Below are positions 36,384 through 63,151 of a stretch of 64,000 nucleotides of DNA, in pieces (position 1 is the first letter of the stretch; each line of letters begins with the position of its first letter). This DNA comes from a bacterium (GTDB lineage: Bacteria; Patescibacteriota; Minisyncoccia; Phycocordibacterales; Phycocordibacteraceae). The stretch spans positions 25,913 through 89,912 of the forward strand of contig JAJZRL010000002.1 of the NCBI GenBank assembly GCA_021802705.1, written 5' to 3'. The notes below the pieces were generated by a model. That model was not told the origin of the DNA, ran no database searches, and worked only from the letters and a program-made list of their open reading frames with translations. Position numbers and translations under genes: made by a program.

Positions 36384-36385
36384 CT

Positions 36386-36622: not shown

Positions 36623-37296
36623 AGCAAATATGCCTCGGCATCATTTACGGTCTTGTTATCGCCATCGCCATAATACTCACCATCTCTTGGTATCAGAGTC
36701 AGCGCAAGGAAGTAAGCATGGCTTCTGCCGTAGTTGCTACCTCAACCGAGCCCTCTCAAATGAGCGAAGAGGATCAACAGTATGCCAAGATAAATCCGAA
36801 CTGCGCTTTGTATTACGAAAACTTAGGGGTGGGAACAGACTCTTTCTCTGTTGAGCTTTCTGACTTCACGAATCTACACCCGCTCGCTGACTTCCTCTGT
36901 GGCAAGTATTCAGATGTCATGAAAATGACTCTCTCTGATGGCAAGACCCTATACTTCATCGCTCCTATCTCCTCGTTAGGCTGTGGCAGTGGTGGCTGCA
37001 CCTACTATCCTATGCTTGAAGTCAGGCCGGGTGTAGTTCGTCATTTGCGAGGATTCGACGCCTATTCTGATGCAGGTTCGACAACTACAGCCACAGTGCA
37101 AAAAGATACTGATGGTTCGGTGTTCGGCTTCCTGTCTTTCGGCTCTCAAAGACACTCCGTGGATGTCTATTGGCACGAAAGTGCGCAATGCGGAACGACA
37201 AATACCTATGCCTTCAACAGTAAAGACGAACCTGTGTTAATCTCCGCGTCTGATAGTTGTTTACCTGGGAAGGGCATCTTATATCCGACGAAGTGA
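36619..37296 (+). CDS. hypothetical membrane-anchored Cys-rich ectodomain protein (island gene 3)
   Basis: MKQICLGIIYGLVIAIAIILTISWYQ TM then ...SSLGCGSGGCTYYP...CGTTNTYAF...SDSCLPGKG. Overlaps the upstream gene by 4 nt. Confidence 0.5.
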   Translation: MKQICLGIIYGLVIAIAIILTISWYQSQRKEVSMASAVVATSTEPSQMSEEDQQYAKINPNCALYYENLGVGTDSFSVELSDFTNLHPLADFLCGKYSDVMKMTLSDGKTLYFIAPISSLGCGSGGCTYYPMLEVRPGVVRHLRGFDAYSDAGSTTTATVQKDTDGSVFGFLSFGSQRHSVDVYWHESAQCGTTNTYAFNSKDEPVLISASDSCLPGKGILYPTK

Positions 37297-37411
37297 GGAC
37301 TCCTCGCTGCAGCATTTTGATAAACAGCAGTTGTTGCGCCATTTTATCCATATAATTTCGGTCTTGAAGTAGGTTTTTAGTTGCCTCATACTCGGGACAC
37401 CAAACAAGCGT

Positions 37412-47692: not shown

Positions 47693-48793
47693 TTACTGGT
47701 TCATCGGAGAAACCAGATAAAGAAGAGAAGCGTCCCCTACCCCGCGTATGATAAGCGGGCGGCCAGGACCGGCTGCTGAAAGCGAAATGCTTTCTGATTG
47801 AGAGAGAGCGAGTGCGGCGGAAAGATACCGATAATTGAAAGAGAGATCGAGCATGCTTCCGTTTACATGAGCAGGGATCGTTTCCGATGATTCCCCAAGA
47901 TCGGTATTGTGAGCGAAAAAAGAAATATGATTCTTTTTCGGATCGAACCGTATATTCACTTTTTGGAAGATGTCTGAAAAAATCGCTGTTTGTTTGAGGC
48001 TGATTTCGAAATCCTTCCGTAAAACTACGGCTTCGGCGAGCGATTCTTTCGGTATGATCTGACGATAATCCGGATAGGTCGCATTCGTAAGCCTTGAAAC
48101 GATCGTTCCCATCGAACCGATAAAGGCGCAATGGTGGTCGTCAAACGAAACGGCTATATCTTCATCGGGGAGCGCTTGGGCTATTTCAACCGCGTTCTTT
48201 GCAGGTATGAGGAGCTTGCCTTGAGTCCCCTTGTTCGTGAGCGGTATCTTCTTTTCCGCGAGCCTGAACGAATCGGTCGCCACAGCCGTCAACACCCCTC
48301 CTTCGATAGAAAGATAGATGCTTGCGAGCTCGGGTCGGACCGTTGAATTCGAGGTGCAAGACGTAAGCGAAGAAAGAAGCGTCCGCAGGAGAGCTCCGGG
48401 GAGCGTAATCGAGTTTTTCGGATTTTCGGGAAACGGGATCGAGGGAAAATCTTCGTAGGGGACGGTCTTGATCGAGCTTCTGCCCATACCGCTTGAGAGT
48501 GAGACTATGTCTCCTGAGTGTTCGAGCGTTACCGTACCGTCGAGCGTAAGCGAAGCGGCGATCTGCTGGAGGAGCGTCGCTGGGATTGCAACGACACCGT
48601 CAGACACGCGAGTTCCCTCAACGGTAAGATCGATCCCTGTTTCAAGATTGGTCGCGCGCATCTTTATCCCTTCATCGCTGACGATGATGAGGATCGAAGA
48701 GAGCGCCGGGAGCGTCGCGCTTTTACGTTCCGCGAATCTTGCAACCTTATACACAGCATCTATAAATTTCTTCTTTTCTATTGAGATATTCAT
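47693..48793 (-). CDS. dnaN: DNA polymerase III beta sliding clamp
   Basis: MNISIEKKKFIDAVYKVARFAERKSATLPALSSILI... with three-domain clamp pattern, 366 aa. Confidence 0.85.
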   Translation of the reverse strand: MNISIEKKKFIDAVYKVARFAERKSATLPALSSILIIVSDEGIKMRATNLETGIDLTVEGTRVSDGVVAIPATLLQQIAASLTLDGTVTLEHSGDIVSLSSGMGRSSIKTVPYEDFPSIPFPENPKNSITLPGALLRTLLSSLTSCTSNSTVRPELASIYLSIEGGVLTAVATDSFRLAEKKIPLTNKGTQGKLLIPAKNAVEIAQALPDEDIAVSFDDHHCAFIGSMGTIVSRLTNATYPDYRQIIPKESLAEAVVLRKDFEISLKQTAIFSDIFQKVNIRFDPKKNHISFFAHNTDLGESSETIPAHVNGSMLDLSFNYRYLSAALALSQSESISLSAAGPGRPLIIRGVGDASLLYLVSPMNQ

Positions 48794-48905
48794 ACAAGTC
48801 TTTTATTAGAGCTGTTGATAACGGGATAACGATAAGGGTGGCTTAAAATAATGGTTTTTCCTGTTGAGGCATCAACACATTGTGTTGATAAGTGTCGCCG
48901 CACAT
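48794..48905. promoter_or_regulatory. candidate oriC / DnaA-box cluster between dnaN and dnaA
   Basis: AT-rich spacer with TGTTGATAA (one mismatch to TGTGGATAA) at 48813..48821 and 48883..48891. Perfect inverted repeat ATCAACACA-T-TGTGTTGAT at 48871..48889. Confidence 0.4.
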
Positions 48906-50258
48906 TCATACAAGGAGCGTCCGGATATTTTGAATTTCTTTTGCGAGCTCGGTATCCACAACAACTTCACGCTTTATCTTCTCACAGGAGTGGATAACCG
49001 TCGTATGATCGCGTCCGCCGAGCTTCGTGCCGATTGTCGGGTACGAGATATTAAAATCCTCCCGCAAGAGATACATGATGACCTGTCTCGGCCGTACCAC
49101 TTCCCTTCTGCGCGTTTTTTCATAAATACTCTCTTCATCGATCCCGTAGAATTCCGCAACCTTATCGACTACATTCTTAACCGAGACGTTTTTTTGCGGA
49201 CGCATGAACGAGCGTAGCGATTGCCGTATTTCAGCTATATCCGGCGGAGACCCCTTCACCTGAGCATGGCAGATGATGGTATTTACCATACCCTCCAATT
49301 CCCGTATCGATCCGGTTATGGAACATGCAACATACTCAACAACTTCATCGGAAAGCATGATCCCATGAGCAGCGGCCTTTTTCTTGATAATAGCCATACG
49401 CGACTCCGTATCGGGCTCCCCGATATCGACAGCCATACCGCTCGCTAACCGCCCCTTAAGGCGTTCTGTGATATCAGGGATAGCGACAGGTGGCCGGTCG
49501 GACGAAAAGACGATCTGCTTATTCGTATCGTACAGGGCGTTAAAGAGATGGAAAAGCTCTTCCTGGGTCTTTTCTTTCTTTGAAAGAAATTGCACATCAT
49601 CCATGATAAGGAGGTCATATTGACGGTACTTATCCTTAAACCGGTTTGCCGTGCCGGCTTGCACGGAGTCGGTATAATCGACGGCGAATTTTTCGGACGT
49701 AAGATAAAACGCTTTCCGACCCGGATACTGTTTTTTAAATTGATTACCGATAGCTTGTATGAGGTGTGTTTTCCCTCTTCCGGTCGCGCCATAGATAAAG
49801 AGCGGATTATAGGAGATACCCGGGCGCTGCAGGGTTGCTTGCGCGGCCGTATGCGCGAGCGCATTGAACGAACCGACGATGAACGTATCGAAAGTGTAAC
49901 GGGGGTTCAGATTATCGCTTTTATTGATATAGAACTCATGCAGAGGAAGCTCGATAACACCCCGGACCGGCTTCGATTCCTTTACGACCTTACGCCGATC
50001 ATCTTTTACGATGAGGTACTCTATATTGCGGAACTCGTATGATATACCCCGAACTATCTTTAGTAGAAGCGCGTGAAATTTCTTAAGGTACCAGTCTTTG
50101 AAAAACTGGCTCGGAACCCCGATATATACCACCCCCTCGTCATCTATCTTTACTATGAAGCTATTACGGAACCATGTATTGAAATTCGCCGGAGATATGG
50201 AAAGTTCGACCTGGGTGAGCACGTATTCCCATAACTCCCGAGGATTCTTCCTATCCAT
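48906..50258 (-). CDS. dnaA: chromosomal replication initiator DnaA
   Basis: GATGRGKTHLIQAIGN Walker A, FLSKKEKTQEE, and a C-terminal DNA-binding helix (IGTKLGGRDHTTVIHSCEKI). Confidence 0.9.
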   Translation of the reverse strand: MDRKNPRELWEYVLTQVELSISPANFNTWFRNSFIVKIDDEGVVYIGVPSQFFKDWYLKKFHALLLKIVRGISYEFRNIEYLIVKDDRRKVVKESKPVRGVIELPLHEFYINKSDNLNPRYTFDTFIVGSFNALAHTAAQATLQRPGISYNPLFIYGATGRGKTHLIQAIGNQFKKQYPGRKAFYLTSEKFAVDYTDSVQAGTANRFKDKYRQYDLLIMDDVQFLSKKEKTQEELFHLFNALYDTNKQIVFSSDRPPVAIPDITERLKGRLASGMAVDIGEPDTESRMAIIKKKAAAHGIMLSDEVVEYVACSITGSIRELEGMVNTIICHAQVKGSPPDIAEIRQSLRSFMRPQKNVSVKNVVDKVAEFYGIDEESIYEKTRRREVVRPRQVIMYLLREDFNISYPTIGTKLGGRDHTTVIHSCEKIKREVVVDTELAKEIQNIRTLLV

Positions 50259-50834: not shown

Positions 50835-51581
50835 GTGATATCAGCCTTCTTCCACACGGCGTTCTATAACCCGATTTACAACGCGCTCGTCGCGCTCGTC
50901 GCTTTTATACCGGGCGGGGACGTCGGGATAGCCGTTATCGTGCTCACAATCATCATAAGGGTCGTTCTCCTCCCTTTTTCGCTCTCCACGGCCCGCACGC
51001 AGCGGGCGATGAAGTTTCTAGAACCGCGGATAAAAGAGCTTAAGGAGAAACATAAGAACAATAAGGAGCAGGAAGCGCTTGAAACGCTCGCTCTTTATCG
51101 CGAAGCGAGGGTTAACCCGTTTGCCGGCATCCTTACGGTTTTCATACAGATACCGGTCCTTCTTGCACTTTACTGGGTTTTTCTCTACGAGCCATTCTCG
51201 ACGCTTGATACGGCACGGCTCTATTTTTTTACCCCAATCCCCCACACCGTTTCCCTCGAATTTCTCGGGATCATTTCCGTCGCCTCAAAAAGCATCTTTC
51301 TCGCGGTGCTCGCCGGGTTTACGCAGTTTCTCCAGGCGCGTCTCGCCCTTTCAGGAATGACGCAACCGGCCGCAAACGAAAAGAGCATGCAGGGCGATTT
51401 CCAAAAAGTGATGAATATGCAGCTCAAATACGTATTCCCATTCATCATCGGCACGATTTCTTATACGACGTCCAGCGCCATAGCTTTATATTTCATCACG
51501 ACGAATATCGCCGGCGCGCTTCAGGAATGGCACGTGCGACACCGCGTACACGCGGAATTCGGACAAGTGTCCGGATCCTGA
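50835..51581 (+). CDS. yidC: membrane protein insertase YidC (short form)
   Basis: IIRVVLLPFSLSTARTQRAMKFLEPRIKELKEKHKNNKEQEA...VFIQIPVLLALYWVF, conserved YidC/Oxa1 core. Confidence 0.85.
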   Translation: MISAFFHTAFYNPIYNALVALVAFIPGGDVGIAVIVLTIIIRVVLLPFSLSTARTQRAMKFLEPRIKELKEKHKNNKEQEALETLALYREARVNPFAGILTVFIQIPVLLALYWVFLYEPFSTLDTARLYFFTPIPHTVSLEFLGIISVASKSIFLAVLAGFTQFLQARLALSGMTQPAANEKSMQGDFQKVMNMQLKYVFPFIIGTISYTTSSAIALYFITTNIAGALQEWHVRHRVHAEFGQVSGS

Positions 51582-51582
51582 T

Positions 51583-52794
51583 TCAAAGCTTATACGCCCA
51601 GAGCGACCCGTCGTTCTTATTGAAGAAAGCGAGAACGCTGTTTGCCGGATCTATCGAGAGCGCCTCGGCATCAAGAGGCGTATTCGTTTCCTTTGAAAAA
51701 TCGAGCACGAGCTGCGCATAGCGGCCGGAAACGTTTATCTTCCAGATACGGTCGGAGAAATGGACGGCCCCCTGATACCAGTCATCCGGATACGCATAGG
51801 TTTCAGGCGGGCTCATCGGCACGCCGCAGTAAATCATCGAGCTGTCCGTTGTCCATGTGCACTTATCAGCGATTGTCGCTATAGGAAGCTGGATCGTCTC
51901 GCCGGTCGTCGCGTTTACAAGCTCCGTCTGCATCCCTTTCGGGAGCGTATAGCTCACGAGCACCCATTCTCCCGACGGGCTTGCAAGCGCGACAAGGCCG
52001 TTTAAGGGCCCCGCAATCCTCGAAAAATGCCCCGCGCCGTCAACGATAAACGCGTCCCCTGGAAGCGTTGCCGACGGTTTCGTAAACGCCAGATAATGCC
52101 CTTTCCCGGCAAAGGAAACGCGAAGCGCTGCGAGCGGGGTCGTGAATACCACCGAGGATCCGGTGCCGTCGGTATGCATGAGAGAAGCCGATGATCCGTT
52201 TACGCCGGAAGCAAGCGCGAGCACACTTGTCGAAGAAACCGAGACATCCGCGAGGTCTTGGGGCAGAAAGAAACCGCTTGAACCGTCTGAGGGCAGCCCA
52301 TAGGTGTTTACCGTGGAAAAATCGGATCCGGAGAGGTAGCGGACGAAGGCGAGAGAGGCGTCGGGAAGCCACGATGCTTCTTCAATTCCCGGGATCGTCC
52401 GGTTGCTTATCCGTGTAAGCGTCCCTGCCTGTACGAGGTATGAAAAGACGTTCCCGCTTTGCCGTTCGATATAGGAGACCCCGACGTCGGGAGACGAGCT
52501 TGCATTTTGTGCGGAAATATCGACCACCGCTTCTCCGGGTACGACCGGACCGGCGCTTATTTCTACGAGCCGGGCTGAGATCGGTACCGGCGAAGGAGCC
52601 TGGACGGCCGTTGTGGTGCTCGCCTCTCCGGGGAGCGTTCCTTGTCCGGCAACCGGTAACCCCGCGGTATTGTCTGTGCCTGTCTTCGGGCCGACCGCAA
52701 GCCTTGCGGAAGGAGCGAAGAAGTAGAAGTATGTCGCCGTTCCGATTCCGGCGAGGAGGATTACGATCGCGGTGATGGTAAGTGTGCGGCGCAT
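51583..52794 (-). CDS. secreted/membrane-anchored hypothetical protein, distal gene of T4SS-like cluster
   Basis: 403 aa, N-terminal TM MRRTLTITAIVILLAGIGTATYFYFF, Ser/Thr/Gly-rich. Confidence 0.5.
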   Translation of the reverse strand: MRRTLTITAIVILLAGIGTATYFYFFAPSARLAVGPKTGTDNTAGLPVAGQGTLPGEASTTTAVQAPSPVPISARLVEISAGPVVPGEAVVDISAQNASSSPDVGVSYIERQSGNVFSYLVQAGTLTRISNRTIPGIEEASWLPDASLAFVRYLSGSDFSTVNTYGLPSDGSSGFFLPQDLADVSVSSTSVLALASGVNGSSASLMHTDGTGSSVVFTTPLAALRVSFAGKGHYLAFTKPSATLPGDAFIVDGAGHFSRIAGPLNGLVALASPSGEWVLVSYTLPKGMQTELVNATTGETIQLPIATIADKCTWTTDSSMIYCGVPMSPPETYAYPDDWYQGAVHFSDRIWKINVSGRYAQLVLDFSKETNTPLDAEALSIDPANSVLAFFNKNDGSLWAYKL

Positions 52795-52795
52795 A

Positions 52796-54046
52796 TTAGT
52801 TTAAAGGTTGCAACGTAAATTGGAGGTTTGGTTGACAAATATAATTATTACTCGAATTGGTGAAATTTGAGAAGGATGTGAATTTGCTAATGATAGAATT
52901 CGCCTGGTTCGCATCAGCAGAATCGAAGCAATAGTATGTTTGATCAAAACATTTTTTACTAGCGCTTCCTGATACTGGTGTTGAGTATGAGGGACAGCTA
53001 GTTTGTGAAAAAAGAGCGGTAGTTTGATTGGTACATACATAGCCGCCATCTGCATTACAGCCGTTTATAAACTGCGATAGAGACGCGCTCGTCTGAGCGT
53101 CAAAGGGCTCCAAGTTTGCGGTTGTCATTGACTGTGCTCCGATATCCATGAGCAAATAAGACTGAGGCGATGCCCCCTCGCAGCTAACAGTCGCTTGAAG
53201 ACAGCCGCTAGAATTAGAAGACGTGCAAGTTACCGAAGAACTATTAGCTCCAAAAAGGCCGAAAAAAGAAGTGCTGCAATTATTTGAAAGCCACTGCTTT
53301 GCAATATTGTCAGCGCTAAGCCCGCCCTTAGCCGCGCAACTCGCGGTTTTTAAATAACTAGTACCAGTAACAGTGCAACCGGTAGCGCTATCGACTGTCG
53401 TAGGGATAGAGTTGTTACCACCTCCCGCAAAAGATGCCGTTTTTAGATTAAGTGGCGGGATATTGAGTGAGAGGTTCAGGATACTCGGATTGATGATGCT
53501 AAAGACGAGGACCGGCGAGAGGACGAGAACGAGACCGAGAAGAGCCTGCGTGATGCGCTTCTTGCCGTCGCTTTGCTTGCTTACGCTGTCTTTCGTCGAT
53601 ATCTCGAGACCACCCCATATGATCATGATAACCGCAAGGATAGCCGCAACGCCGATGAGATATTTATAGAGGTTGTTGAGGAAATTGGAGAGCCCGCTCG
53701 AATTTGCCACGGTTCCTTGCGTAAGGCCGGGAATTCCGGCAAGAGGGACGAATCCGCTGGTGTTTGAGCCTTGCGACGAGACTGTCGTGTTTGAAGGATT
53801 ATTGCTTGCATTTGTTGTCGGATTTGTCGTTTGTCCGGTAGCGCTTGTTCCTGCCGAGGAGCTGGAACCCGATGCTTGGCACGTCATGCTCGCGCCATCA
53901 TATGAAACCTGACACGTGCCGTTCGCACCCGATGACGTGCTGCACGGGACCCCGACGTTTTGGTTCGTACAATCAGTGATCAGCGCCGCATGTGCCACGC
54001 CGACCGTGCCGAGCATTACAAGCGTGAGGAAAGCGAGTTTTTTCAT
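52796..54046 (-). CDS. secreted S/T/N-rich protein with VirB2/TrbC-pilin-like hydrophobic segment
   Basis: Signal peptide, then FVPLAGIPGLTQG...LSNFLNNLYKYLIGVAAILAVIMIIWGGLEI resembling VirB2/TrbC pilin cores. Long Cys-rich C-terminal domain with markedly low GC. Confidence 0.45.
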   Translation of the reverse strand: MKKLAFLTLVMLGTVGVAHAALITDCTNQNVGVPCSTSSGANGTCQVSYDGASMTCQASGSSSSAGTSATGQTTNPTTNASNNPSNTTVSSQGSNTSGFVPLAGIPGLTQGTVANSSGLSNFLNNLYKYLIGVAAILAVIMIIWGGLEISTKDSVSKQSDGKKRITQALLGLVLVLSPVLVFSIINPSILNLSLNIPPLNLKTASFAGGGNNSIPTTVDSATGCTVTGTSYLKTASCAAKGGLSADNIAKQWLSNNCSTSFFGLFGANSSSVTCTSSNSSGCLQATVSCEGASPQSYLLMDIGAQSMTTANLEPFDAQTSASLSQFINGCNADGGYVCTNQTTALFSQTSCPSYSTPVSGSASKKCFDQTYYCFDSADANQANSIISKFTSFSNFTNSSNNYICQPNLQFTLQPLN

Positions 54047-55047
54047 AAGCCGAATAGGTTACCGCTCCCCTGCGTTTCGAAAGAAAGCGGCAGAACCGTC
54101 GTCGCCTTTATGAAATCTCCCGAAGAACCGACGAGCGAAAGCGATGCGCTGCCCTTCCCCGATCCGGTTGGCCGGAGCGTTATCAGGTTGCCGGTTTGTG
54201 AAAGCGCGTTATTCAAAAACCATTGAAGCGCCGGCGCGCCGGTTCCGGTCGGGAAGGAGAAAGGAGCCGCATAGAGAGATGTTTCTGTTCCGGTGATAGT
54301 GTATCCTCCCGAAAGCGTATGGTCATAGAGAATGCCGAGGAGCGGATCGTTTATATAGATACGCACGGTCGGTTCCTGAGCCGTAAGCGAAACGGATGCT
54401 CCGCCCACAAAGACTCCATTCTGGCTCTCGACGACAACCGAGACATTCCTACTACGGTACTGGAGCGGCGAGGCGACAATGATGGCTTCTTTTCCGATAC
54501 CCGAAACGCTCGATATGCTCGCCCCGTCCACCGTCCACGCGTACGAAAGCGTGGCGGGATCGAGAGGCTTCCCCGCGGCGTTCCTAATGTCTGCCATCGC
54601 AACGACGCGTACGGTCCCCTCAAGCGGTACGAGCGGGTTCCCCGGATAGAGCGCCGGCGCCGAAGAGATCGGCTCGGCGATAAGCACGACATCCTGCGGC
54701 CGTACGGAGACGCTGCGGCTGTACGTTGTTCCTCCCGATGAGATGACCGCTTTGATTGTCGTAAGGCTCCCCGCTTCCCCGAGAGGAATGCTGACCGGCT
54801 GCACATTTCCTGAATAGGTTTCCTTGCCGTTGACGAAAACCGTCATCGTCGCGTTTGCCAGGTTGAGCGATGTCGAAAGCGCGGTAAGGGTTACCGAGCT
54901 CGAAGGAGAAGGGTTTTGCGGGCTTATCGAAAGAGAGAAAGGATCAACGCTGTTGACATTGAACGATTGTGCGCCGGCTAGAACGGGCAAGAAAAAAGCA
55001 AGCCCGAGGAAGGTGATGCGAAGTGGCCGGAATGAGAACCCTTTCAT
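54043..55047 (-). CDS. secreted hypothetical protein with Ig-like repeats
   Basis: 334 aa with signal peptide MKGFSFRPLRITFLGLAFFLPVLAGAQS. 4-nt overlap with the upstream gene. Confidence 0.5.
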   Translation of the reverse strand: MKGFSFRPLRITFLGLAFFLPVLAGAQSFNVNSVDPFSLSISPQNPSPSSSVTLTALSTSLNLANATMTVFVNGKETYSGNVQPVSIPLGEAGSLTTIKAVISSGGTTYSRSVSVRPQDVVLIAEPISSAPALYPGNPLVPLEGTVRVVAMADIRNAAGKPLDPATLSYAWTVDGASISSVSGIGKEAIIVASPLQYRSRNVSVVVESQNGVFVGGASVSLTAQEPTVRIYINDPLLGILYDHTLSGGYTITGTETSLYAAPFSFPTGTGAPALQWFLNNALSQTGNLITLRPTGSGKGSASLSLVGSSGDFIKATTVLPLSFETQGSGNLFGL

Positions 55048-55077
55048 TGCTCTTAGTATATCGCGTGCGCAAGAACT

Positions 55078-55707
55078 TTATGCGGCTTTGCGCACATCGT
55101 CGGGGATTTCATCCATACTCTCATCATTTGCCGCTTCGGCCGCTTTTATTTGTGTGATTTGCGCGGCTATCTGAGCCTGTTCTTGCCTTCCGGATTCGGC
55201 TTGCTCGCTCTCGTATCGTGCCAACGCCTCCCGATCCCGCTTTATTTGAGAGTGATACATCTTGAACGTAGTGCCGGTGAGTCCCGGCAATGAGCCGATA
55301 AAGGGCGTCTCGCTTATGAGAAGGCCAAACATAAACCAAAGCATATTGCCCGATGATTCCTTGAAGATACGCGCATTGGTGAGCATGATCATCAACCCAA
55401 CCGTAAGCCATCCGAAGAAACCAACCGCCACCGCCAAGATGATTCCGAGAACCTCAAGAGCAGGCCCGATGACGAATCCGGAGACACCTCCGCCCGCGGT
55501 GCCGAGAATACTGCTGATCCAAGTACCGAACAAACCGCTTGTTGCGGCAGTCGTACCGACGCCGATAAGGACCGGCCCGAAAAACCAAAACTGTTCGAAG
55601 AGGAACCGGACCGCATCAAAGACGAGCGCGGTTGTCATGACCGGCATCGCCCGCGTCCAGGTCATAACGCGCGGAGGCTCTTTACTGCTGTTTCTGCGTG
55701 AGATCAT
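55078..55707 (-). CDS. polytopic membrane protein (possible VirB6/TrbL-like channel component)
   Basis: 209 aa with at least 4 TM helices and a C-terminal coiled/charged tail. Its 5' end overlaps the VirB4 gene 3' end. Confidence 0.4.
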   Translation of the reverse strand: MISRRNSSKEPPRVMTWTRAMPVMTTALVFDAVRFLFEQFWFFGPVLIGVGTTAATSGLFGTWISSILGTAGGGVSGFVIGPALEVLGIILAVAVGFFGWLTVGLMIMLTNARIFKESSGNMLWFMFGLLISETPFIGSLPGLTGTTFKMYHSQIKRDREALARYESEQAESGRQEQAQIAAQITQIKAAEAANDESMDEIPDDVRKAA

Positions 55708-57505
55708 GTCGTTCTTTTTCCCCTTTTATCGCGAGAAGCTGCGAAGGGTCTGACGTGATGATCTGGTCTTCGGTATAGCTTGCGACGATCTTTATCGCGA
55801 CATGCTTCAGTCCCGCAAAGAAGAGCCCTTCCCCGACGCCTGCTTCAAGGAGCAGATATTTCTCTTCATCGGTCAGACTGAAGGTTTCTTGCAAGACCTT
55901 GATGCTTGTCGGAGATTGTTTCAGCAGGAGCTGCAACGAGGAGTTCGCAAGGATCGGCCGCCCATACGGGCTCCTGATGAAATCTTCGACATCCTGCGTT
56001 ATGGTGCAGACGCCGAGGTAGTACTTGCGGCCGCGTTTCGCGACGGAATACAAGAACGAAGCCGTATCTTCGCTTTTCATCATCCACCACGCCTCGTCGA
56101 TGACAAGCAGGCGCTTTTTCAACTCGTGACGTATCGCGTTCCATATGTAATGCGTCACGATATACATCGCCACCGGCTTGAGCTCGTCTTCCATATCGCG
56201 TATCGAGAAAACGGCGAATTGGTGCCGGAAATCGACATTCGTCGGCTGATTGAGGAATCCGGACCACGTGCCGCGGGTATATTTGGAAAGCCTCTCGACG
56301 AGAGACTCGCTCCCTTCCATGCCGGAGAGCACCTGTTCGAAATCGGAAAGCAGCGGGGGCTCGGCGCCGGTGAAATCGGCGTCGCCAGTGATGTCTTTCA
56401 GCGCATAGGTTTCGCTGACCGCGCGATCGATGATGGCATCTTCTTCCGGGGTGAGTCCGCCAAGCATGATGCGGAAGAGCCCGACAAGCGCGATGATATT
56501 GGAGCGCAAGATGTCCCGCGGATCCTCGTCTTCTTTGACCGGCGGCAGGTCGAACGGGTTGATGTGGTGTTCGGAAGAGAGCGAGATGCGGAACGAACGG
56601 CCTCCGGTCGCTTCCGCAAGCTGTCCGTACTCCTGTTCAGGATCGATGACGATAACGTCCGCGCCGAACATGAGCGAACGAAGTATCTCAAGCTTTGCGG
56701 AGTAGCTCTTGCCGCTGCCGGATTTCGCGAAAACGACCGAATTGTAGTTCTCAAGCGAGAAGCGATCGAAGAGGATGAGCGAAGAATTGTGCCGGTTGAT
56801 GCCATAGAGAATGCCGCGGTCGCTCGTAAGGTCGAATGAAACGAAGGGGAATATGGAAGAAAGAGGAGAAGAGTTCAATTTCGAATTGACGAGGAGCTCG
56901 TCGGTCCCGAGCGGCAGGCAGGACCGGAATCCTTGTTCCTGCTGGAAAAGGGCTGGTTTGGTATATACGAGCTTTGAATCAAGGATGCTGCGGATATCAC
57001 CCTCGGTCTTGCTTATCTCTTCTTTTGAATCGCCGTAGAGCGCAAGATAGAGTCCGACATCGAAAAGCTTCTCCTGTGCCTGCTGGAGATCGTTTCGCAG
57101 GTTCTCCAGGTCCTGATATGCAGTATCAAGGAGCGGGTCGCGTACCAGACCCTTTGCCTCACGGTCGTTTATCTGGCTCTGAACCTCGGCGACCTTTTTT
57201 TGGAAGCCGCGAAGCGCTTGTTCGGTTTCGATGGGATGGATGAATATGGAGATATCAAGCACCTTGTCGAGGTTGATGACCGGAGAAAACCAGCTGTCGA
57301 CGAGAAAGCGCGGGTATGAAATGGTATAGAATGCTCGAACGAATTTCTCACCGAGCTCGACTTCCCTCGAGCTTATCTTAAGCGCCGTCGGAGCGATCGT
57401 ATCGATGAGATCGAGAGATCCCTGCTGGTAGATGTCTTTCGGAAGGACCGGCATTATTTCCGGCGTTTCTTCTTTTTTGCGATTGAGAAAATCGAGGAGC
57501 GACAT
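55682..57505 (-). CDS. VirB4/TrbE-family type IV secretion ATPase, ATPase portion
   Basis: Walker A VVFAKSGSGKSYSAK, Walker B LLVIDEAWWMM (DEAW hallmark of VirB4), 607 aa. Confidence 0.8.
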   Translation of the reverse strand: MSLLDFLNRKKEETPEIMPVLPKDIYQQGSLDLIDTIAPTALKISSREVELGEKFVRAFYTISYPRFLVDSWFSPVINLDKVLDISIFIHPIETEQALRGFQKKVAEVQSQINDREAKGLVRDPLLDTAYQDLENLRNDLQQAQEKLFDVGLYLALYGDSKEEISKTEGDIRSILDSKLVYTKPALFQQEQGFRSCLPLGTDELLVNSKLNSSPLSSIFPFVSFDLTSDRGILYGINRHNSSLILFDRFSLENYNSVVFAKSGSGKSYSAKLEILRSLMFGADVIVIDPEQEYGQLAEATGGRSFRISLSSEHHINPFDLPPVKEDEDPRDILRSNIIALVGLFRIMLGGLTPEEDAIIDRAVSETYALKDITGDADFTGAEPPLLSDFEQVLSGMEGSESLVERLSKYTRGTWSGFLNQPTNVDFRHQFAVFSIRDMEDELKPVAMYIVTHYIWNAIRHELKKRLLVIDEAWWMMKSEDTASFLYSVAKRGRKYYLGVCTITQDVEDFIRSPYGRPILANSSLQLLLKQSPTSIKVLQETFSLTDEEKYLLLEAGVGEGLFFAGLKHVAIKIVASYTEDQIITSDPSQLLAIKGEKERHDLTQKQQ

Positions 57506-57519
57506 AGTTTTATAATAGG

Positions 57520-58152
57520 TTAGGCGTCAAGCCGGATCGGGTTCTCGAGCTCTCCGGGATTGAAAGAGCGGTAGAGGAGCTCGATGATCTCTTCGGTCCC
57601 GAGCGGGACCGCACGAATACCCGAACTCCCGAGCCCGCTTGCAACGAGCGCGAGGCGCTGCTCGAGCTGCGCGCGATTCTCTTCGAAAGACAGATCGGCG
57701 GCATTCGCAGCCACCGGATTCCCGCGATGGAGGAATCCGACCGCGTTTACGGGGGAAACCCGCGGCGAATACGGAACAACGACGTAAAACGATTTTGTCA
57801 TGATGTTCGCCTGATCCGTGAACGAACGTATGAACTCTATGTACTCGTGCAGTTGGATTCGCATAAGCTCGGTTTCTTGCCCGGCGGCCTTTTCAGAAAG
57901 CAGCGCGAGGTACGGCCGTAAGTCCATCTTGCGCGAATTCACGACGATCTGAATCGAGAAGTCGAGCACGTTAAGGAAGTTCTGGAACCCGAGGATGATG
58001 GCATGCTGTTCGTCAGCGGATTTCAGGCCGAAATTGACCGAGGAACAGATAAGGACGCCGCGGTAGCTGTCGTCTTTGAGGACGATGATGCCGTTCCGGA
58101 TCTCTTTGACCGGAACGAATTGCTGCGTTGCGCCCACTGTTTTTGCGGCCAT
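57520..58152 (-). CDS. VirB4 N-terminal (CagE_TrbE_VirB-like) domain encoded as a separate ORF
   Basis: 210 aa: EIRNGIIVLKDDSYRGVLICSSVNFGLKSADEQHAIILGFQNFLNVLDFSIQIVVNSRKMDLRPYL resembles VirB4/TrbE N-terminal domains. It ends 14 nt before the ATPase ORF, which is in another frame. Confidence 0.55.
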   Translation of the reverse strand: MAAKTVGATQQFVPVKEIRNGIIVLKDDSYRGVLICSSVNFGLKSADEQHAIILGFQNFLNVLDFSIQIVVNSRKMDLRPYLALLSEKAAGQETELMRIQLHEYIEFIRSFTDQANIMTKSFYVVVPYSPRVSPVNAVGFLHRGNPVAANAADLSFEENRAQLEQRLALVASGLGSSGIRAVPLGTEEIIELLYRSFNPGELENPIRLDA

Positions 58153-58153
58153 A

Positions 58154-58594
58154 TTATAGGTTCGTATTATCGGAGGTATCCTGTGTCGATTTTACATCAA
58201 GCGACCAGGCAAGTTCCGAGAGTTTCCCGCGCGTGAGCTTCGGGGTGCCGCGCGTCGGTTGCTCTTGAGGCATTGCCGCTGTCGCGCCGCCGGCGCCTTC
58301 TTTCTTTGCTTCCCCTTCTTCGTGTTTCCATAGGAAGAGCCTTGCGCGGGTGTAGTAATTGAAACCGGCTTCGAGTATTTCGACGAAAGGCTTCCCGTTC
58401 ATTTTGTAGAACGCGAGCGCTCCCGCGAGTGCCACGACGGGTATGGAGAACAGGAGCGCAAGCACGATTGGAAGGTAGACGAAGAATATCGCGCAAAAAC
58501 CGCCCGCACCGGCGACGTAGATGAACTGCTTCAGGGTTAGAGGCCCGACGATTCTATCCTCGACATCGATGAACTGCGGCACTTGATACTCCAT
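58154..58594 (-). CDS. VirB3-like small membrane protein
   Basis: 146 aa MEYQVPQFIDVEDRIVGPLTLKQFIYVAGAGGFCAIFFVYLPIVLALLFSIPVVALAGALAFY; two TM helices, immediately upstream of the VirB4 ORFs. Confidence 0.45.
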   Translation of the reverse strand: MEYQVPQFIDVEDRIVGPLTLKQFIYVAGAGGFCAIFFVYLPIVLALLFSIPVVALAGALAFYKMNGKPFVEILEAGFNYYTRARLFLWKHEEGEAKKEGAGGATAAMPQEQPTRGTPKLTRGKLSELAWSLDVKSTQDTSDNTNL

Positions 58595-58642: not shown

Positions 58643-59968
58643 TTACGGACACTCCCCGTTCGCAGCGGTCTTTTTGAGAATTTGTTCTGGCGAGGAGCCC
58701 TGTTCGTAATGCAGGAACGCTTCGGGATGTGCATCCCACTCCTTCCGCACGGCGTCGACGATGCGCCACGACTCGAGCACTTCTCCGCTCGACGCGAAAA
58801 GAGTGTGGTCTCCGCGCAAAGCGTCGAGAAGGACGTGTTCATACGCGTCAGGGAGCGCGCCGAAATGGTCGGCATATGCGAATGCGAGAGGGACGCGCTC
58901 GATCGTCCGGTCATACCCCGGACGCTTGGCGAAGAAACAGAGCTCGATACCCTCGTTCGGCTGGATACGGAGCGTCAACCGGTTCGATTGTGATATGTCG
59001 GTACGCCGATACGTGATAACGATTTCCGTTTTCTTCTCCCCGAGCGCCTTTCCGGTCGTGAGGGTTATAGGCACATCGCTCCAGCGAGGATCTGTCGAAG
59101 AAAGCGTGATCGAAGCGAACGTTTCAACCATCGAGTCCGGATTTCCCACTTCATCGCGATACCCCTCGTATTGTCCGCGATAGATGCGGTCGGGAACGAC
59201 CTCAAGCGCGCGTAAAGCCGCTTGTCGCGCCTGCGGCACTTCATGCCACGCGTCTTTTTCGGGAAGGGTCATGAGCGTAAGGGCGGCGAGCTGAAGCAGG
59301 TGGCTTTGGACCAGGTCGCGCAATGCGCCGGTCTGCTCATAAAAGGCGACGCGCCCTTCGATCCCGATGGTTTCGCTCGCGAGGATGTCGATACGCTCGA
59401 TCGCTTCGCTATTCCACGTATGTTCGAAGAGCGGATTGTCGCGCCGAAAAAAAAGTATGTTTTGAACCGTTTCCTTTGCGAGATAGTGATCGATCCGGTA
59501 GACCTGTTCCGACGAAAAAGAACGTTCGATATGCTTCACAAGCTCTTTCGCGCTCTCTTCGTCGACCCCGAAAGGCTTCTCGAGGAGCAGTTTCGTATTC
59601 GGGATGTCGGCAAGCCCCGAGCCCCCGAGCTGTTCGATGATGGGCCGCGCGGTTTTCGGCGGCACGGAGAGATACCACAGGCGTTGCGCCGTGCCGCCCT
59701 GCTCGCGTTCGATATCGCGAAGGTACGAGTCGAGACGGGCAAAATCAGCGGTCTCCGTAAGCGACATCGGGAAAAGCGTCGTGCGGGCGCGGATATACTC
59801 CGCATGAGCGATGCCGGTTAAGAGTGACTCGATGTCGGCGGTTTGCTGCCGCGTGATGCCGACGATACGCAGTTGTGCCGGCAAGACACCCGCCTTAGCC
59901 ATCTCGCCGATAGCCGGCAACAGTTTTCGACGTGAAAGGTTGCCGGTAATACCGACGATGATGAGGAT
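58643..59968 (-). CDS. zwf: glucose-6-phosphate 1-dehydrogenase
   Basis: RIDHYLAKE (G6PD signature DHYLGKE) and an N-terminal NADP-binding GITGNLSRRKL. Start at MGNNAF. Confidence 0.85.
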   Translation of the reverse strand: MLIIVGITGNLSRRKLLPAIGEMAKAGVLPAQLRIVGITRQQTADIESLLTGIAHAEYIRARTTLFPMSLTETADFARLDSYLRDIEREQGGTAQRLWYLSVPPKTARPIIEQLGGSGLADIPNTKLLLEKPFGVDEESAKELVKHIERSFSSEQVYRIDHYLAKETVQNILFFRRDNPLFEHTWNSEAIERIDILASETIGIEGRVAFYEQTGALRDLVQSHLLQLAALTLMTLPEKDAWHEVPQARQAALRALEVVPDRIYRGQYEGYRDEVGNPDSMVETFASITLSSTDPRWSDVPITLTTGKALGEKKTEIVITYRRTDISQSNRLTLRIQPNEGIELCFFAKRPGYDRTIERVPLAFAYADHFGALPDAYEHVLLDALRGDHTLFASSGEVLESWRIVDAVRKEWDAHPEAFLHYEQGSSPEQILKKTAANGECP

Positions 59969-59984
59969 CGCCGATGTGAACGCG

Positions 59985-60245
59985 TTATTTCCCATCACTT
60001 CGGATATCTTTCGGTTGGAGCGGGCTTTCGATTCCGGGCGACCAGGAGGCCTGTATTGACCCGAACTTCTTTTCGTACTCCTCAAGCTGATGCGAGAGGC
60101 TCTGTACGAGACGTTTCATGTGTTGGGGCGTGAGCGCGTAAGCGGTTGCGTTTTCACCGACGCTCATGACCATGACGAAGTTTTCTTCCGAATGCCCCGC
60201 CACGACGCTTTCACAGAACTGTTTAGGGATTTTGTTGAAGTCCAT
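59985..60245 (-). CDS. DUF3467-like small protein
   Basis: 86 aa ...ENFVMVMSVGENATAYALTPQHMKRLVQSLSHQLEEYEKKFGSI pattern reminiscent of DUF3467. Confidence 0.4.
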   Translation of the reverse strand: MDFNKIPKQFCESVVAGHSEENFVMVMSVGENATAYALTPQHMKRLVQSLSHQLEEYEKKFGSIQASWSPGIESPLQPKDIRSDGK

Positions 60246-60255: not shown

Positions 60256-60900
60256 CTATATACCATTACCGCTGTTGCCGGTAAGCAGACCGAAAAGCCA
60301 GAGGACAAGCGTGAAAAACGGCTGCGCGAAAAGGTAGGAAAAGATGAGGAGGAAAAGGATCAGCGAGAAGACCCCCATGGAACGGATATTCCTCTCGAGA
60401 TGCTCAAGCTTCGAAGAAAGAGACCACGGCAGCGCGCTGCGGAGCGCGGTAAACCCGTCCAAAGGCGGGATCGGTACGAGATTGAACAGCCCGAGAAATA
60501 AGTTTATGAATGAGATAGTCATGGCGAAAGAGAGGGCGGTCGCGCCAAGCCCGAAAGAAGCCCCGAAGCGCACGATAAGCCCAAAGACGCACGCGAGAAG
60601 GATGTTCGTCGCGGATCCGGCGAGCGCGACGAACGTTTCGCCCCAGCGCTGGTTCCTTAGGTTGTAGGGATTGTAGGGTACCGGCTTCGCCCACCCGAAG
60701 AATATGGGCGAACCGGAGAGAACGAGAAGCGCCGGGATGGCGATTGACCCCATGAGATCGATGTGCGGGATCGGATTCAGGGTAAGGCGGCCGGCCAGGC
60801 GCGCGGTCGGATCGCCGAGAGAATCAGCGGCATATCCGTGCGCAACCTCATGCGCGATGATGGAAAGAATGAGGACGCTAAGCCAGAGCGCAGTAATCAT
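60256..60900 (-). CDS. site-2 protease (M50) family zinc metalloprotease
   Basis: HEVAHGY HExxH within a TM helix, polytopic with LDG motif (LVPIPPLDG). Start set at MITALWLS. Confidence 0.7.
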   Translation of the reverse strand: MITALWLSVLILSIIAHEVAHGYAADSLGDPTARLAGRLTLNPIPHIDLMGSIAIPALLVLSGSPIFFGWAKPVPYNPYNLRNQRWGETFVALAGSATNILLACVFGLIVRFGASFGLGATALSFAMTISFINLFLGLFNLVPIPPLDGFTALRSALPWSLSSKLEHLERNIRSMGVFSLILFLLIFSYLFAQPFFTLVLWLFGLLTGNSGNGI

Positions 60901-60939
60901 ATTGCTCGTTTGAAATCTTATGCTACCATGCGGAGGATT

Positions 60940-61182
60940 ATGGCACGAGCCTGCGACATAACCGGTAAAAGCACGCAAGTTGGCGGGCGGTATTCCAACC
61001 GCACCCGCGCGACCCAGTTCAATCCGACGGGCAAAGTTCGTCGCAAGGCGAACCTTCAAAAACGCCGCATTTACGTACACGAGCTCGGTAAAACGGTCAT
61101 TGTTGATGTTTCTATGAAAGGGTTGAAGACCATCAAGAAAAACGGAGCCTACACGACCCTGAAAAAGTCCGGCGTCATCTAG
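60940..61182 (+). CDS. rpmB: ribosomal protein L28
   Basis: MARACDITGKSTQVGGRYSNRTRATQFNPTGKVRRKANLQKRRIYVHELGKTVIVDVSMKGLKTIKKNG matches L28. Confidence 0.8.
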   Translation: MARACDITGKSTQVGGRYSNRTRATQFNPTGKVRRKANLQKRRIYVHELGKTVIVDVSMKGLKTIKKNGAYTTLKKSGVI

Positions 61183-61215
61183 CCGTAACGAACGGAATAA
61201 CCAATTACCGCGGAG

Positions 61216-61950
61216 CTAAGGCGCCGTAATCGTTTTTCCGTTTGAAACGAAAACCTTTGCCGGCGTGCTTGAGGAGATAGTTATTGCAGGAGCTTGCGAG
61301 CACGTACCGAAGTCCGCAAGCCGGGACGCAGCAGCAGAAGAAAGTCCGTTCTCTATGAGAAACGACGTATCGCCGTAAGAAAGACAGAAAGCGAGGGCAT
61401 AGTTCAGCATGGTTTTTGCATTCGGGCGTGCTTGTCTCTGGAGAGGCGGCCAGAGAATCTCAAGAGAGAGGCGCTTCCCTGCGGTAACGCGCATGCCACG
61501 CGAGACGGCGGCATCGCGGAGCCCGTGCTCTGCTTTTACCGCTTCGGCAAGCAGAGCCTCCTGGCTTCTTGAACCAGCCACCGGCGAACGGACGAGGTAT
61601 CCGATGCTGTACCGGCTAAGGACATCCGGTAATCCGCCGGTCGTATCCGCGGTAATACGCGTAAGCACGACTGCGTCTATACGACGCTGCCATTCAGGCA
61701 TCGCCCCTCCCAGTAAGCGGAGTATTTTCGCATCCGGTCCGGTATCGATAAGGATCGTTGCGCCGCGCTTTTCCCGGACGAGGATCGCACGGCTCTCTTT
61801 CCCCGTTTCGAGAACGGTTACGGTGAGCGGTGGCGTGGAGAATAGTTCGCGATAGACGAACATATTTGCTGCAATAAGGACGACGGCGATACCGATGATT
61901 GTCCGGCTGCGCAAAGCTTGCATGAGTACCGTAAGTATAGTATTACTCAA
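61216..61950 (-). CDS. membrane-anchored ComEC-type metallo-beta-lactamase-fold domain, catalytically degenerate
   Basis: N-terminal TM, then LTVTVLETGKESRAILVREKRGATILIDTGPDAK...IDAVVLTRITADTTGG. Same layout as the ComEC C-terminal MBL domain, but THxDxDHxGG is replaced by TRITADTTGG. Confidence 0.5.
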   Translation of the reverse strand: MSNTILTVLMQALRSRTIIGIAVVLIAANMFVYRELFSTPPLTVTVLETGKESRAILVREKRGATILIDTGPDAKILRLLGGAMPEWQRRIDAVVLTRITADTTGGLPDVLSRYSIGYLVRSPVAGSRSQEALLAEAVKAEHGLRDAAVSRGMRVTAGKRLSLEILWPPLQRQARPNAKTMLNYALAFCLSYGDTSFLIENGLSSAAASRLADFGTCSQAPAITISSSTPAKVFVSNGKTITAP

Positions 61951-61977
61951 TCGGATCGATTTTCGGGAGAAGTGTCA

Positions 61978-62151
61978 TGAATCCATCCCCTCACGAAGAG
62001 GTTCTTTTCGAAGAAGAGCTTGAACGCATGCGCCAGATATTCGGCTTCGAGAAGGTCGCGGAACTCATCCGCGACAACGGCGTCCGGCGTACGCTCGAGA
62101 TGCTCCGGCTTACGGAGTGCTTTATCGAAACGGGGTCAACCATGCAGTAAT
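61978..62151 (+). CDS. hypothetical small protein (57 aa)
   Basis: MNPSPHEEVLFEEELERMRQIFGFEKVAELIRDNGVRRTLEMLRLTECFIETGSTMQ; a strong terminator follows directly. Confidence 0.35.
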
Positions 62152-62156
62152 GGAGC

Positions 62157-62190
62157 GCCCGCGATCAGATGATCGCGGGCGTCTTTTTTA
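62157..62190 (+). terminator. rho-independent terminator
   Basis: Perfect stem gcccgcgatc-agat-gatcgcgggc followed by tcttttttac. Confidence 0.6.
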
Positions 62191-62208
62191 CTCTGTAGGC
62201 TACTGAGT

Positions 62209-62529
62209 TTACTGGCCGCGCATCTTATCCTCCCGATAGATCTGCTTCCCTTCTTCTATCGATCGTGCCATCCCGATCACCTCATCCTTGTCGTTTATGA
62301 CCGGCGCTTTCCCTGCGACGTCCCGCACGGTAAGACGCGCATCAAGGGCTTTCTGCACGACGTCTTCGACAGAATCATTTCCGTGTTCCTCGATAAGGGC
62401 TGCTACTTGGCGGATTTCATCAGCGGAGAACTGCTTTTCGGCATATTCCGGATGTTTCGCTATAAAAGTGGTTACCATCTGTTCTACGCCGGTTTCGGCA
62501 TGCGGGTATTTTTGCGATTCCATAGTCAT
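62209..62529 (-). CDS. hypothetical protein
   Basis: About 106 aa from MTMESQKYPHAETGVEQMVTTFIAKHPEYAEKQFSADEIRQVAALIEEHG...; the N-terminal part of the longer ORF looks non-coding. Confidence 0.35.
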   Translation of the reverse strand: MTMESQKYPHAETGVEQMVTTFIAKHPEYAEKQFSADEIRQVAALIEEHGNDSVEDVVQKALDARLTVRDVAGKAPVINDKDEVIGMARSIEEGKQIYREDKMRGQ

Positions 62530-62560
62530 ATGAAAGGAATAATAGGGTATGATACGGAAT

Positions 62561-63151
62561 ATGCAATATACCCTACGACAATTCAATCTTCCCGCGCTCA
62601 CCGGGCTTTCTGAGAAACAAATAAAGGTACATCTCGGACTGTACGAAGGATACGTGAAGCACGTGAACCTCATAAGCGACACGCTCGCCGCTGTCCGCAA
62701 CGGGGATCTGAAACTCGATCCGTACGTTGTCGCCGAGCTCCGCCGCAGGTTCCCTTTCGAGTTTAACGGCATGCGCATGCACGAATATTATTTCGAACAA
62801 TTCGAAGGCGAAAAAGGAGGAAGTCCCGATTCCGCGCTTGCCGCGGCCGCAAAAGAAAAGTACGGAAGCGGAGAGAATTTCATCGCGCACATTAAGGAAG
62901 TCGCCGGAAGCCGCGGCATCGGCTGGGTCGTCGTATCCGTTGATCCCGCCACCCGAACCTTACACACCGTTTTTGTGAACGATCATGAGATCGGACAGCT
63001 CGCGGGGCTCCCGATAGTGCTCGCGCTCGACCTCTGGGAACACGCATTCATGGTGGACTATGTTCCCGCGGAGAAGAAAAATTATATCGATGCCTTTTTC
63101 GCAAACCTCAATTGGAGCGTCGTTGAGAAACGTTTCGATGCGGCGAAATAA
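62561..63151 (+). CDS. Fe/Mn superoxide dismutase family protein
   Basis: The C-terminal motif ALDLWEHAFMVDYVPAEKKNYIDAFFANLNWSVV matches the SOD D-x-W-E-H-A-Y-Y region. The N-terminus YTLRQFNLPALTGLSEKQIKVHLGLYEGYV aligns to the SOD N-terminal helix with only one of the paired His retained. Confidence 0.7.
   Translation: MQYTLRQFNLPALTGLSEKQIKVHLGLYEGYVKHVNLISDTLAAVRNGDLKLDPYVVAELRRRFPFEFNGMRMHEYYFEQFEGEKGGSPDSALAAAAKEKYGSGENFIAHIKEVAGSRGIGWVVVSVDPATRTLHTVFVNDHEIGQLAGLPIVLALDLWEHAFMVDYVPAEKKNYIDAFFANLNWSVVEKRFDAAK

Follow-up and report, generated by a model that had tools for sequence, protein, structure and literature searches.

The stretch of DNA analyzed here (referred to as the window) comprises 64,000 nucleotides of contig JAJZRL010000002.1 from assembly GCA_021802705.1 (positions 25,913 to 89,912 of the forward strand), which derives from a patescibacterium of the family Phycocordibacteraceae, and harbors a cluster of genes related to type IV secretion systems (T4SSs). 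An earlier note made from the sequence alone, hereafter the original prediction, had described seven co-directional genes between yidC and zwf, and this arrangement is confirmed by the coordinates of the open reading frames (ORFs) and by the families of the flanking genes. Seven tightly packed ORFs, all on the minus strand, span 51583–58594 of the window and are flanked on the left by yidC (50835–51581, plus strand) and on the right by zwf, encoding glucose-6-phosphate dehydrogenase (58643–60085, minus strand). Numbered g1 to g7 in the direction of transcription, the genes are separated by a 1-nt gap (g1/g2) and a 14-nt gap (g2/g3), an overlap of up to 26 nt (g3/g4), a 30-nt gap (g4/g5), a 4-nt ATGA overlap (g5/g6), and another 1-nt gap (g6/g7). 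Pfam and NCBIfam identify families for four of the seven products, namely those of g1, g2, g3, and g6, and return no family match for g4, g5, or g7. With high confidence, the cluster can be assigned to the Patescibacteria clade of T4SSs, in its Paceibacteria/Kaiserbacteria version.

The first three genes code for recognizable T4SS components. The product of g1 (58154–58594, minus strand) is a small PrgI/VirB3-like membrane protein of 146 amino acids with a hydrophobic hairpin at about residues 24–66; it exceeds the gathering score of Pfam PrgI (4.5e-10), which bears out the VirB3-like protein anticipated in the original prediction, matches TcpE weakly, and is homologous to a PrgI-like gene product encoded upstream of VirB4 in Pontibacillus (4.6e-7). 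The 210-residue product of g2 (57520–58152, minus strand) is TrsD-like and corresponds to a free-standing N-terminal domain of VirB4, as had been proposed: it matches only the N-terminal part of full-length VirB4 models, covering positions 1–164 of the 752-position conju_CD1110 model of NCBIfam (2e-6). Further NCBIfam matches are to VirB4_plasma (2.6e-9) and, weakly, to TrsD (0.0085); the precomputed Pfam label is PF26593 (TraC-like), and similarity to a TrsD-like protein of Pontibacillus reaches 3e-24. The third gene, g3 (55682–57505, minus strand), encodes a VirB4-family ATPase of 607 residues, in which the predicted motifs were located at residues 263–267 (Walker A, GSGKS; 56705–56719) and 470–473 (Walker B, DEAW; 56087–56098). 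It covers positions 183–733 of conju_CD1110 with an E-value of 9.2e-112 and passes the cut-off of this family (374.7 vs 325 bits); additional matches are to TIGR00929 VirB4_CagE (1.3e-32) and to the Pfam families P-loop_TraG, AAA_10, and DUF87. Along the conju_CD1110 model, g2 and g3 thus tile a single VirB4. Since the two are separate ORFs in all 78 of 78 related loci, with each of the three relative frames represented, the split is a real gene boundary rather than a sequencing frameshift, and an origin of the divided VirB4 as a frameshifted gene or pseudogene is ruled out.

The only pilin gene in the window is g6 (52796–54046, minus strand), which codes for a VirB2-type T4SS pilin of 416 residues. 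In agreement with the expectation that one large secreted protein of the cluster would contain a VirB2/TrbC-like core, the protein scores above the gathering threshold of Pfam T4SS_pilin (PF18895; 2e-10, at 53516–53698), with weaker matches to TrbC/VirB2 (2e-4) and to the Mbov_0395 pilin-like family of NCBIfam (9e-6). A signal peptide is followed by an N-terminal module with four cysteines and a linker rich in serine, threonine, and asparagine (residues 21–100), by the core, and by a C-terminal ectodomain of about 215 residues with 12 cysteines and low GC content (52799–53446). Conservation is limited to residues ~100–200, a VirB2-type core made up of two helices and a basic loop. In relatives with a VirB4 identity of 88% or more, the pilin core is 60–80% identical, and the ectodomain is 50% identical in one and about 30% identical in several; in seven close relatives, whose pilins measure only 216–263 residues, it is absent or cannot be aligned. 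Queried alone against 1.84 billion representative proteins, the ectodomain gave eight matches at E <= 1e-3, six of them real, and these six are proteins of 309–426 residues that each carry a T4SS_pilin core in front. To judge from these comparisons, the ectodomain is a near-orphan, rapidly replaced module confined to these pilins and would therefore be consistent with a surface-exposed determinant of specificity or variation. The very low GC content ascribed to this gene was overstated, as g6 averages 48.5% compared with 55.5% for the window and 47.7% for dnaA; the description fits the last ~66 codons, to which values of 29–38% are confined. GC content at third codon positions (GC3) is 0.50 in g6 as against 0.62–0.72 in the neighboring genes.

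The remaining three genes are specific to this lineage. A secreted protein of 334 residues with three tandem immunoglobulin (Ig)-like beta-sandwich domains behind a signal peptide is encoded by g5 (54043–55047, minus strand). Its AlphaFold2 model (mean pLDDT 76) is all-beta and consists of three blocks, for which the top Foldseek matches are phage Hoc, CD45, SGBP-B, CD22, and SiiE; a profile search against the PDB also yields Hoc (9e-5), and members of the g5 family show weak matches to Cadherin-like, BiPBP_C, and Ig_3. The product of g7 (51583–52794, minus strand; 403 residues) is a membrane-anchored, extracytoplasmic seven-bladed beta-propeller composed of a transmembrane (TM) helix (residues 2–26), a disordered linker (residues 26–73), and the propeller itself (residues 76–403). 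In the 64 related loci that span the interval from VirB4 to yidC, the g5, g6, and g7 families are present in 62–64, the g5 and g6 families each in 62. Both g5 and g7 were considered as VirB8, PrgL, or other components of the pCF10 conjugation system and rejected, as no significant match was obtained and the folds are Ig-like and beta-propeller; neither protein has the NTF2 fold of VirB8-like proteins.

The fourth gene, g4 (55078–55707, minus strand), codes for a small polytopic membrane protein of 209 residues, or of 195 residues if the alternative start at 55665 is used. Its designation as VirB6-like in the original prediction reflected topology and position only and does not hold, homology being negative in every test applied. 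Neither g4 nor its 39 family members (40 proteins) match TrbL/VirB6 in Pfam, a sequence-profile search against the PDB returned nothing relevant and no VirB6/TrbL, and hhalign gave probabilities of 0.2% against PrgH of pCF10 and 2% against an 8-TM protein of Pontibacillus; together with the NCBIfam result, these searches led to rejection of g4 as a VirB6 homologue. The gene is found at the expected position in 39 of the 64 loci and is missing there in 25, mainly loci with the most divergent VirB4, and it is fast-evolving. The protein terminates in a charged tail (55081–55131, ending ...AANDESMDEIPDDVRKAA) of the form AANDN-x7-AA. Two C-terminal alanines are present in 24 of the 40 family members vs 2 of 257 window ORFs of at least 80 residues; AAND occurs in 14 of the 40, and AAND or a variant (PAND, RAND) lies 13–17 residues from the end in 18, as exemplified by the tails AANDNAAIKQQEAA and AANDNSEERGKMAA. 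The tags that tmRNA appends to proteins destined for degradation (ssrA tags) read AANDENYALAA in Escherichia coli and AANDNFAEEFAVAA in Caulobacter. By analogy in shape and length, the g4 tail could represent a built-in degron, a suggestion offered as a lead only; neither the window nor 83 loci yielded a tmRNA gene that would allow a comparison of tags, and a search of the literature on the candidate phyla radiation (CPR) also yielded nothing.

Homologues of g3 number at least 8000 database proteins. The best 120 matches listed are 87–93% identical, and those bearing a name belong to Kaiserbacteria, Paceibacterota, or Minisyncoccota. A scan of species-representative genomes identified 576 relatives, the best 80 of which were retrieved with 10-kb flanks and used to map the window proteins; at these species-level loci, g3 is 72–91% identical. 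Membership of the Patescibacteria VirB4 clade was judged by these identities, as opposed to at most 35% on plasmids. Wherever the locus retrieved from a genome extends across the region, the order g1-g2-g3-(g4)-g5-g6-g7 followed by yidC-rnpA-dnaA-dnaN-PBP1A is kept, with g6 and g7 occasionally swapped, and the syntenic cluster including its yidC-rnpA-dnaA-dnaN neighborhood is shared by about 60–80 species-level genomes. Median identities to the window among the related loci are 81% for the VirB4 ATPase, 77% for DnaA, 63% for the TrsD-like g2, 56% for PBP1A, 54% for DnaN, 52% for the PrgI-like g1 (found in 76 of the 80), 45% for YidC, 38% for g7, and 35% for g5. Within the same genomes, VirB4 identity exceeds that of DnaA in 58 of 58 comparisons, of DnaN in 56 of 56, of PBP1A in 42 of 42, and of YidC in 64 of 64; the loci had been ranked by VirB4 similarity, which somewhat favors VirB4 as the most conserved gene. 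Apart from the pilin gene, GC content and GC3 of the cluster match those of the host genome. The conserved synteny and a VirB4 that surpasses DnaA in conservation show the cluster to be a core machine passed on by vertical inheritance; it is under very strong purifying selection and represents neither an island nor a mobile element. A mobile-element origin was rejected on the fixed synteny and the conservation. The best match to VirB4 among 72,556 plasmids, on a non-mobilizable megaplasmid of Pontibacillus, is 35% identical.

The predicted position beside the replication origin is supported by the synteny with yidC-rnpA-dnaA-dnaN and by a group of DnaA-box-like sites: five of the 14 in the window are found at 48747–48997, around the dnaN–dnaA spacer and 2.6 kb from the cluster. 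GC skew across the window is dominated by gene-level effects, and oriC cannot be located from it. If oriC coincides with the DnaA boxes at the dnaN–dnaA spacer, transcription of the T4SS genes runs toward the origin and meets the replication fork head-on, an orientation that fits poorly with the published rationale of gene dosage for high expression. On the other side of the cluster, a block consisting of ComEC, an iron/manganese superoxide dismutase on the opposite strand, a metallo-beta-lactamase-like protein, an M50 protease, and DUF3467 (60256–63978) is kept directly upstream of the T4SS genes in close relatives; the order DUF3467, zwf, g1 is seen only in the window, in two near-identical contigs, and in one related locus.

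Genes for conjugative DNA transfer are absent from the surroundings. Pfam was run on every window ORF of at least 300 residues and on several smaller ones, and the adjoining 10 kb at either window end were assessed from precomputed Pfam labels on contigs encoding the same proteins, located by exact-protein look-ups (the NCBI copy of the left end being contig DAHVXN010000002.1 of GCA_027356665.1), so that about 84 kb were covered in total. No relaxase, no coupling protein of the VirD4/TcpA type, and no VirB11 was found in this region. Hence, the scan of the window ORFs bears out the statement that the window lacks VirD4, VirB11, and relaxase, and the 10 kb on either side, which the original prediction had marked for inspection, contain neither VirD4 nor relaxase according to their Pfam labels. 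Recombinases and integrases were likewise missing among the scanned window ORFs, and no tRNA-flanked island boundaries were seen, all tRNA genes of the window lying at least 16 kb from the cluster. The scanned ORFs include housekeeping proteins (IleRS, ArgRS, ClpB, PolA, a Mur ligase, dCTP deaminase, ThyX, NusG, and RuvB), and the genes beyond the window ends are housekeeping again, plus ComEC, RecJ, and PilC. The sole T2SSE ATPase in the window (41302–42981; 559 residues, 8.6 kb from the cluster) is of the PilB type and contains an MshEN domain. Type IV pilus genes are therefore represented in the T4SS region by PilM (24825–26108), this PilB-type ATPase, and PilC just past the window end; in Saccharibacteria, both the T4SS and the type IV pilus have been reported to be essential. 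Within the cluster itself, Pfam and NCBIfam detect no cell-wall hydrolase domain, and neither the cluster nor its direct neighbors include a candidate gene for an effector, a toxin, or an immunity protein.

The system is already published as a kind (2023, 2025), and the locus adds nothing categorical to it. An "apparent T4SS" (SEML1_0006-0019) resembling conjugative systems of Gram-positive bacteria was described by Wang et al. in 2023 in Southlakia epibionticum, where the T4SS together with its pilins is indispensable for growth as an epibiont and neither a coupling protein nor a relaxase is recognizable (PMC10633639). In a survey of 3,035 Patescibacteria genomes by Quinonero-Coronel et al. 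in 2025, 2,425 VirB4 proteins formed one clade nested in the MPF-FATA group; TrsD was the most abundant accessory component, PrgI/VirB3 and VirB2-like pilins were encoded near virB4, and VirB6 and VirB8 were scarce (PMC12102498). According to the same study, VirD4-like genes are present in most genomes, with type IV coupling protein (T4CP) homologues mostly far from virB4, and dnaA, dnaN, rnpA, and rpmH are the commonest neighbors of virB4 in Paceibacteria and Microgenomatia (PMC12102498). A 2025 review regards the Patescibacteria T4SS as unique among monoderm T4SSs and speculates about a pilus that would serve as a conduit, either for signals or for uptake (PMC12857230). The cluster shares with these systems VirB4, a separate TrsD, PrgI/VirB3, a VirB2-like pilin (PF18895), the lack of a relaxase or T4CP nearby, a chromosomal location by dnaA, dnaN, rnpA, and rpmH, and class-level vertical inheritance. 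Several differences exist nevertheless. While Saccharimonadia and Microgenomatia carry arrays of 2–11 small pilins, this locus has a single pilin gene with a large variable ectodomain, and, unlike the published systems, the cluster has no detectable VirB6, VirB8, or VirB1 and carries g4, g5, and g7, which are not named in either account of Patescibacteria T4SSs (PMC12102498, PMC10633639). The stripped-down apparatus of the original prediction is supported, but the cluster is not really minimal, as it encodes three conserved lineage-specific envelope proteins. The hypervariable Cys-rich pilin ectodomain, the lineage-specific outer components, and the ssrA-tag-like tail of g4 are minor new points.

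More distant relatives are found among the MPF-FATA systems of Bacillota (TrsC-TrsD-TrsE of pGO1/pIP501, PrgI-PrgJ of pCF10, and CD1110), which have the VirB4 family, PrgI, and the TrsD-type split in common with the cluster. These systems are plasmid- or ICE-borne (on integrative conjugative elements) and generally described without a pilus, whereas the present locus is chromosomal and includes a pilin. Only PrgJ, the VirB4 of pCF10, is recognizably related to a product of the cluster (1.5e-44); PrgH (VirB6), PrgK (hydrolase), PrgL (VirB8-like), PcfC (VirD4), and the relaxase of pCF10 have no counterpart here. The nearest VirB4 outside the CPR, the 35%-identical one mentioned above, belongs to a module on the megaplasmid of Pontibacillus sp. 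ALD_SL1 (NZ_CP062975.1, 351–361 kb). There, genes for two small T4SS pilins and an 8-TM protein are followed by PrgI-like and TrsD-like genes, then by a split virB4, and finally by the gene for a large peptidoglycan endopeptidase. Its pilins (145–151 residues) match the g6 core at 1e-14 and 6.5e-12, and its PrgI, TrsD, and VirB4 are homologous to g1–g3; the 8-TM protein of 779 residues and the endopeptidase of 1050 residues set it apart, and, as in pCF10, no counterparts of g4, g5, and g7 are found. The homologous PrgI, TrsD, VirB4, and pilin cores imply that the module of motor plus pilin predates the CPR or exists outside it.

Taken as a whole, including the mechanism outlined below, the observations are best explained by an apparatus derived from the MPF-FATA conjugation machinery of monoderms that has been repurposed for a host-dependent life; a probability of about 0.6 is assigned to this reading. 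Its central element, a T4SS-like machine for secretion or contact rather than conjugation, was part of the original prediction and is supported by the family thresholds, the synteny, the lack of a relaxase or T4CP in the ~84 kb, and the literature. VirB4 is established as a pilin dislocase in Agrobacterium. Here, PrgI, TrsD, and VirB4 make up the motor at the cytoplasmic membrane; PrgI and TrsD would tether a VirB4 hexamer to this membrane, and VirB4 would extract the g6 pilin, inserted by Sec/YidC, and assemble it as a polymeric pilus or tube. The exterior of this tube would bear the hypervariable, cysteine-rich ectodomains of g6, g5 with its three Ig domains and the beta-propeller g7 would constitute a lineage-specific part for the cell envelope or for host contact, and g4 might serve as an accessory membrane subunit. 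By touching or penetrating the host cell, the resulting structure would serve as a conduit without conjugative function or as an organelle of attachment. Assembly of a pilus by the cluster is probable, and a role of the structure as a conduit for uptake is advanced only tentatively.

Several points weigh against this reading. Neither a channel subunit of the VirB6 type nor a VirB8-like protein or a VirB1-like hydrolase has been identified in the cluster, and this is the main gap in the model, which leaves channel formation unexplained; genes of the VirB8 and VirB1 kinds could be located in another part of the genome. A bulky ectodomain of ~215 residues on every subunit may hinder packing into a VirB2-type filament, and g6, if its packing is blocked in this way, might act as a pilin of the minor or tip type or fail to polymerize altogether. 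A VirD4-like gene may be present elsewhere in the genome, as in most Patescibacteria (PMC12102498). A scan of the cluster for promoters and terminators gave counts no higher than in shuffled sequence, and because no such signal was detected, the operon structure is deduced from gene packing alone.

It is very improbable that the cluster forms part of a conjugative element, either an ICE or a decaying remnant, with relaxase and coupling protein lost or encoded in another place. In its favor, conjugal-transfer ATPases (CD1110, Mbov_0397) and ICE pilin-like proteins are the nearest curated families, conjugative plasmids make up 3771 of the best 5000 plasmid records with a VirB4 match, and the VirD4-like genes in most Patescibacteria genomes (PMC12102498) could be taken in the same sense. 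Yet intact genes occupy the same dnaA-adjacent position in the related genomes, VirB4 is more conserved than DnaA, composition is host-like except in the pilin gene, and neither an integrase, a relaxase, a T4CP, nor tRNA-flanked island boundaries occur in the region examined. Relaxases, moreover, were detected in only 103 of 3035 Patescibacteria genomes (PMC12102498). From synteny and conservation, a conjugative remnant is effectively excluded, and the synteny also argues strongly against a cognate relaxase with oriT, against excision or transfer of the region, and against a patchy occurrence in sister genomes.

ComB and Ced, T4SS relatives without a T4CP or relaxase, act as importers. By analogy, the cluster might be a machine for the uptake of DNA or other nucleic acids, in which a pilus captures nucleic acid and passes it on to ComEC. 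ComEC is indeed encoded ~4.5 kb upstream in conserved synteny, with RecJ just past it; T4SS loci of the class ABY1 co-localize with comF, recG, and radA (PMC12102498), and a 2026 preprint describes uptake of host RNA, together with tubular structures that are possibly T4SS pili, in a cultivated Microgenomatia strain (bioRxiv 10.64898/2026.06.21.733656). Despite these parallels, such a machine is unlikely. Deletion of comEC in Southlakia abolishes competence and leaves the cells viable (PMC12857230), whereas the T4SS is essential (PMC10633639), and the essential role is therefore not exerted through ComEC. The matches of g3 to CedB (1.1e-8) and CedD, which might be quoted in favor of uptake, are weak and partial, restricted to the P-loop region common to these proteins, and far short of the curated cut-offs; nor does the cluster encode a recognizable nucleic acid-binding protein. 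An exporter of proteins or effectors into the host, comparable to Ptl or Brucella VirB in working without a T4CP and with substrates that may first use Sec, has an equally low probability. Effector translocators without a T4CP exist (PMC12102498, PMC12857230), Wang et al. suggest that the Southlakia system "may instead export proteins" (PMC10633639), and g5 and g7, which are encoded in the same operon and carry a Sec signal or membrane anchor, could be substrates. They possess, however, conserved folds of a structural type in 62–64 of 64 loci rather than the character of variable cargo, and no candidate effector, toxin, or immunity gene is found in or next to the cluster. Uptake of host material is rated likelier than protein delivery into the host. 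Helicobacter ComB, archaeal Ced, Bordetella Ptl, and Brucella VirB are likewise non-conjugative and lack a coupling protein and relaxase; they belong to other MPF lineages, and none of them is a core locus conserved throughout a phylum. A more elaborate version of the repurposed apparatus, in which the VirB4/PrgI/TrsD motor drives a new module of g5, g7, and a giant pilin with a host-specificity ectodomain as a feeding tube that imports host cytoplasm and is timed by proteolysis of the g4 tail, would be a long shot.

A few further features of the window lie outside the cluster. The isoleucyl-tRNA synthetase (IleRS; 886–4305, minus strand; 1139 residues) contains a phosphoglycerate mutase-like His_Phos_1 domain (residues 506–672) inside its class I catalytic core, and the same architecture is seen in precomputed Pfam matches for the identical protein on NCBI and ENA contigs. 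A patch of low GC content at 35000–37300 (0.43–0.49 vs 0.555) directly after tRNA-Lys (35279–35354) may be a small integrated island; its ORFs at 35679–36383 and 36607–37296 have no Pfam match. Two large ORFs within 10545–13819 (minus strand), of 638 residues without a Pfam match and of 453 residues with a weak match to CARDB, may code for surface proteins, and GC skew over this interval is unusually strongly positive (0.15–0.26).

Patescibacteria account for a large share of bacterial diversity and apparently live off other cells; nearly all of them possess the T4SS, which proved essential in the single species examined. The locus described here is a clean, fully syntenic Kaiserbacteria example of this published system, in which the invariant parts—the motor and the pilin core—can be told apart from the lineage-specific or hypervariable ones, namely g4, g5, g7, and the pilin ectodomain. 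These variable parts are the likeliest place in which host specificity and mechanism would reside.

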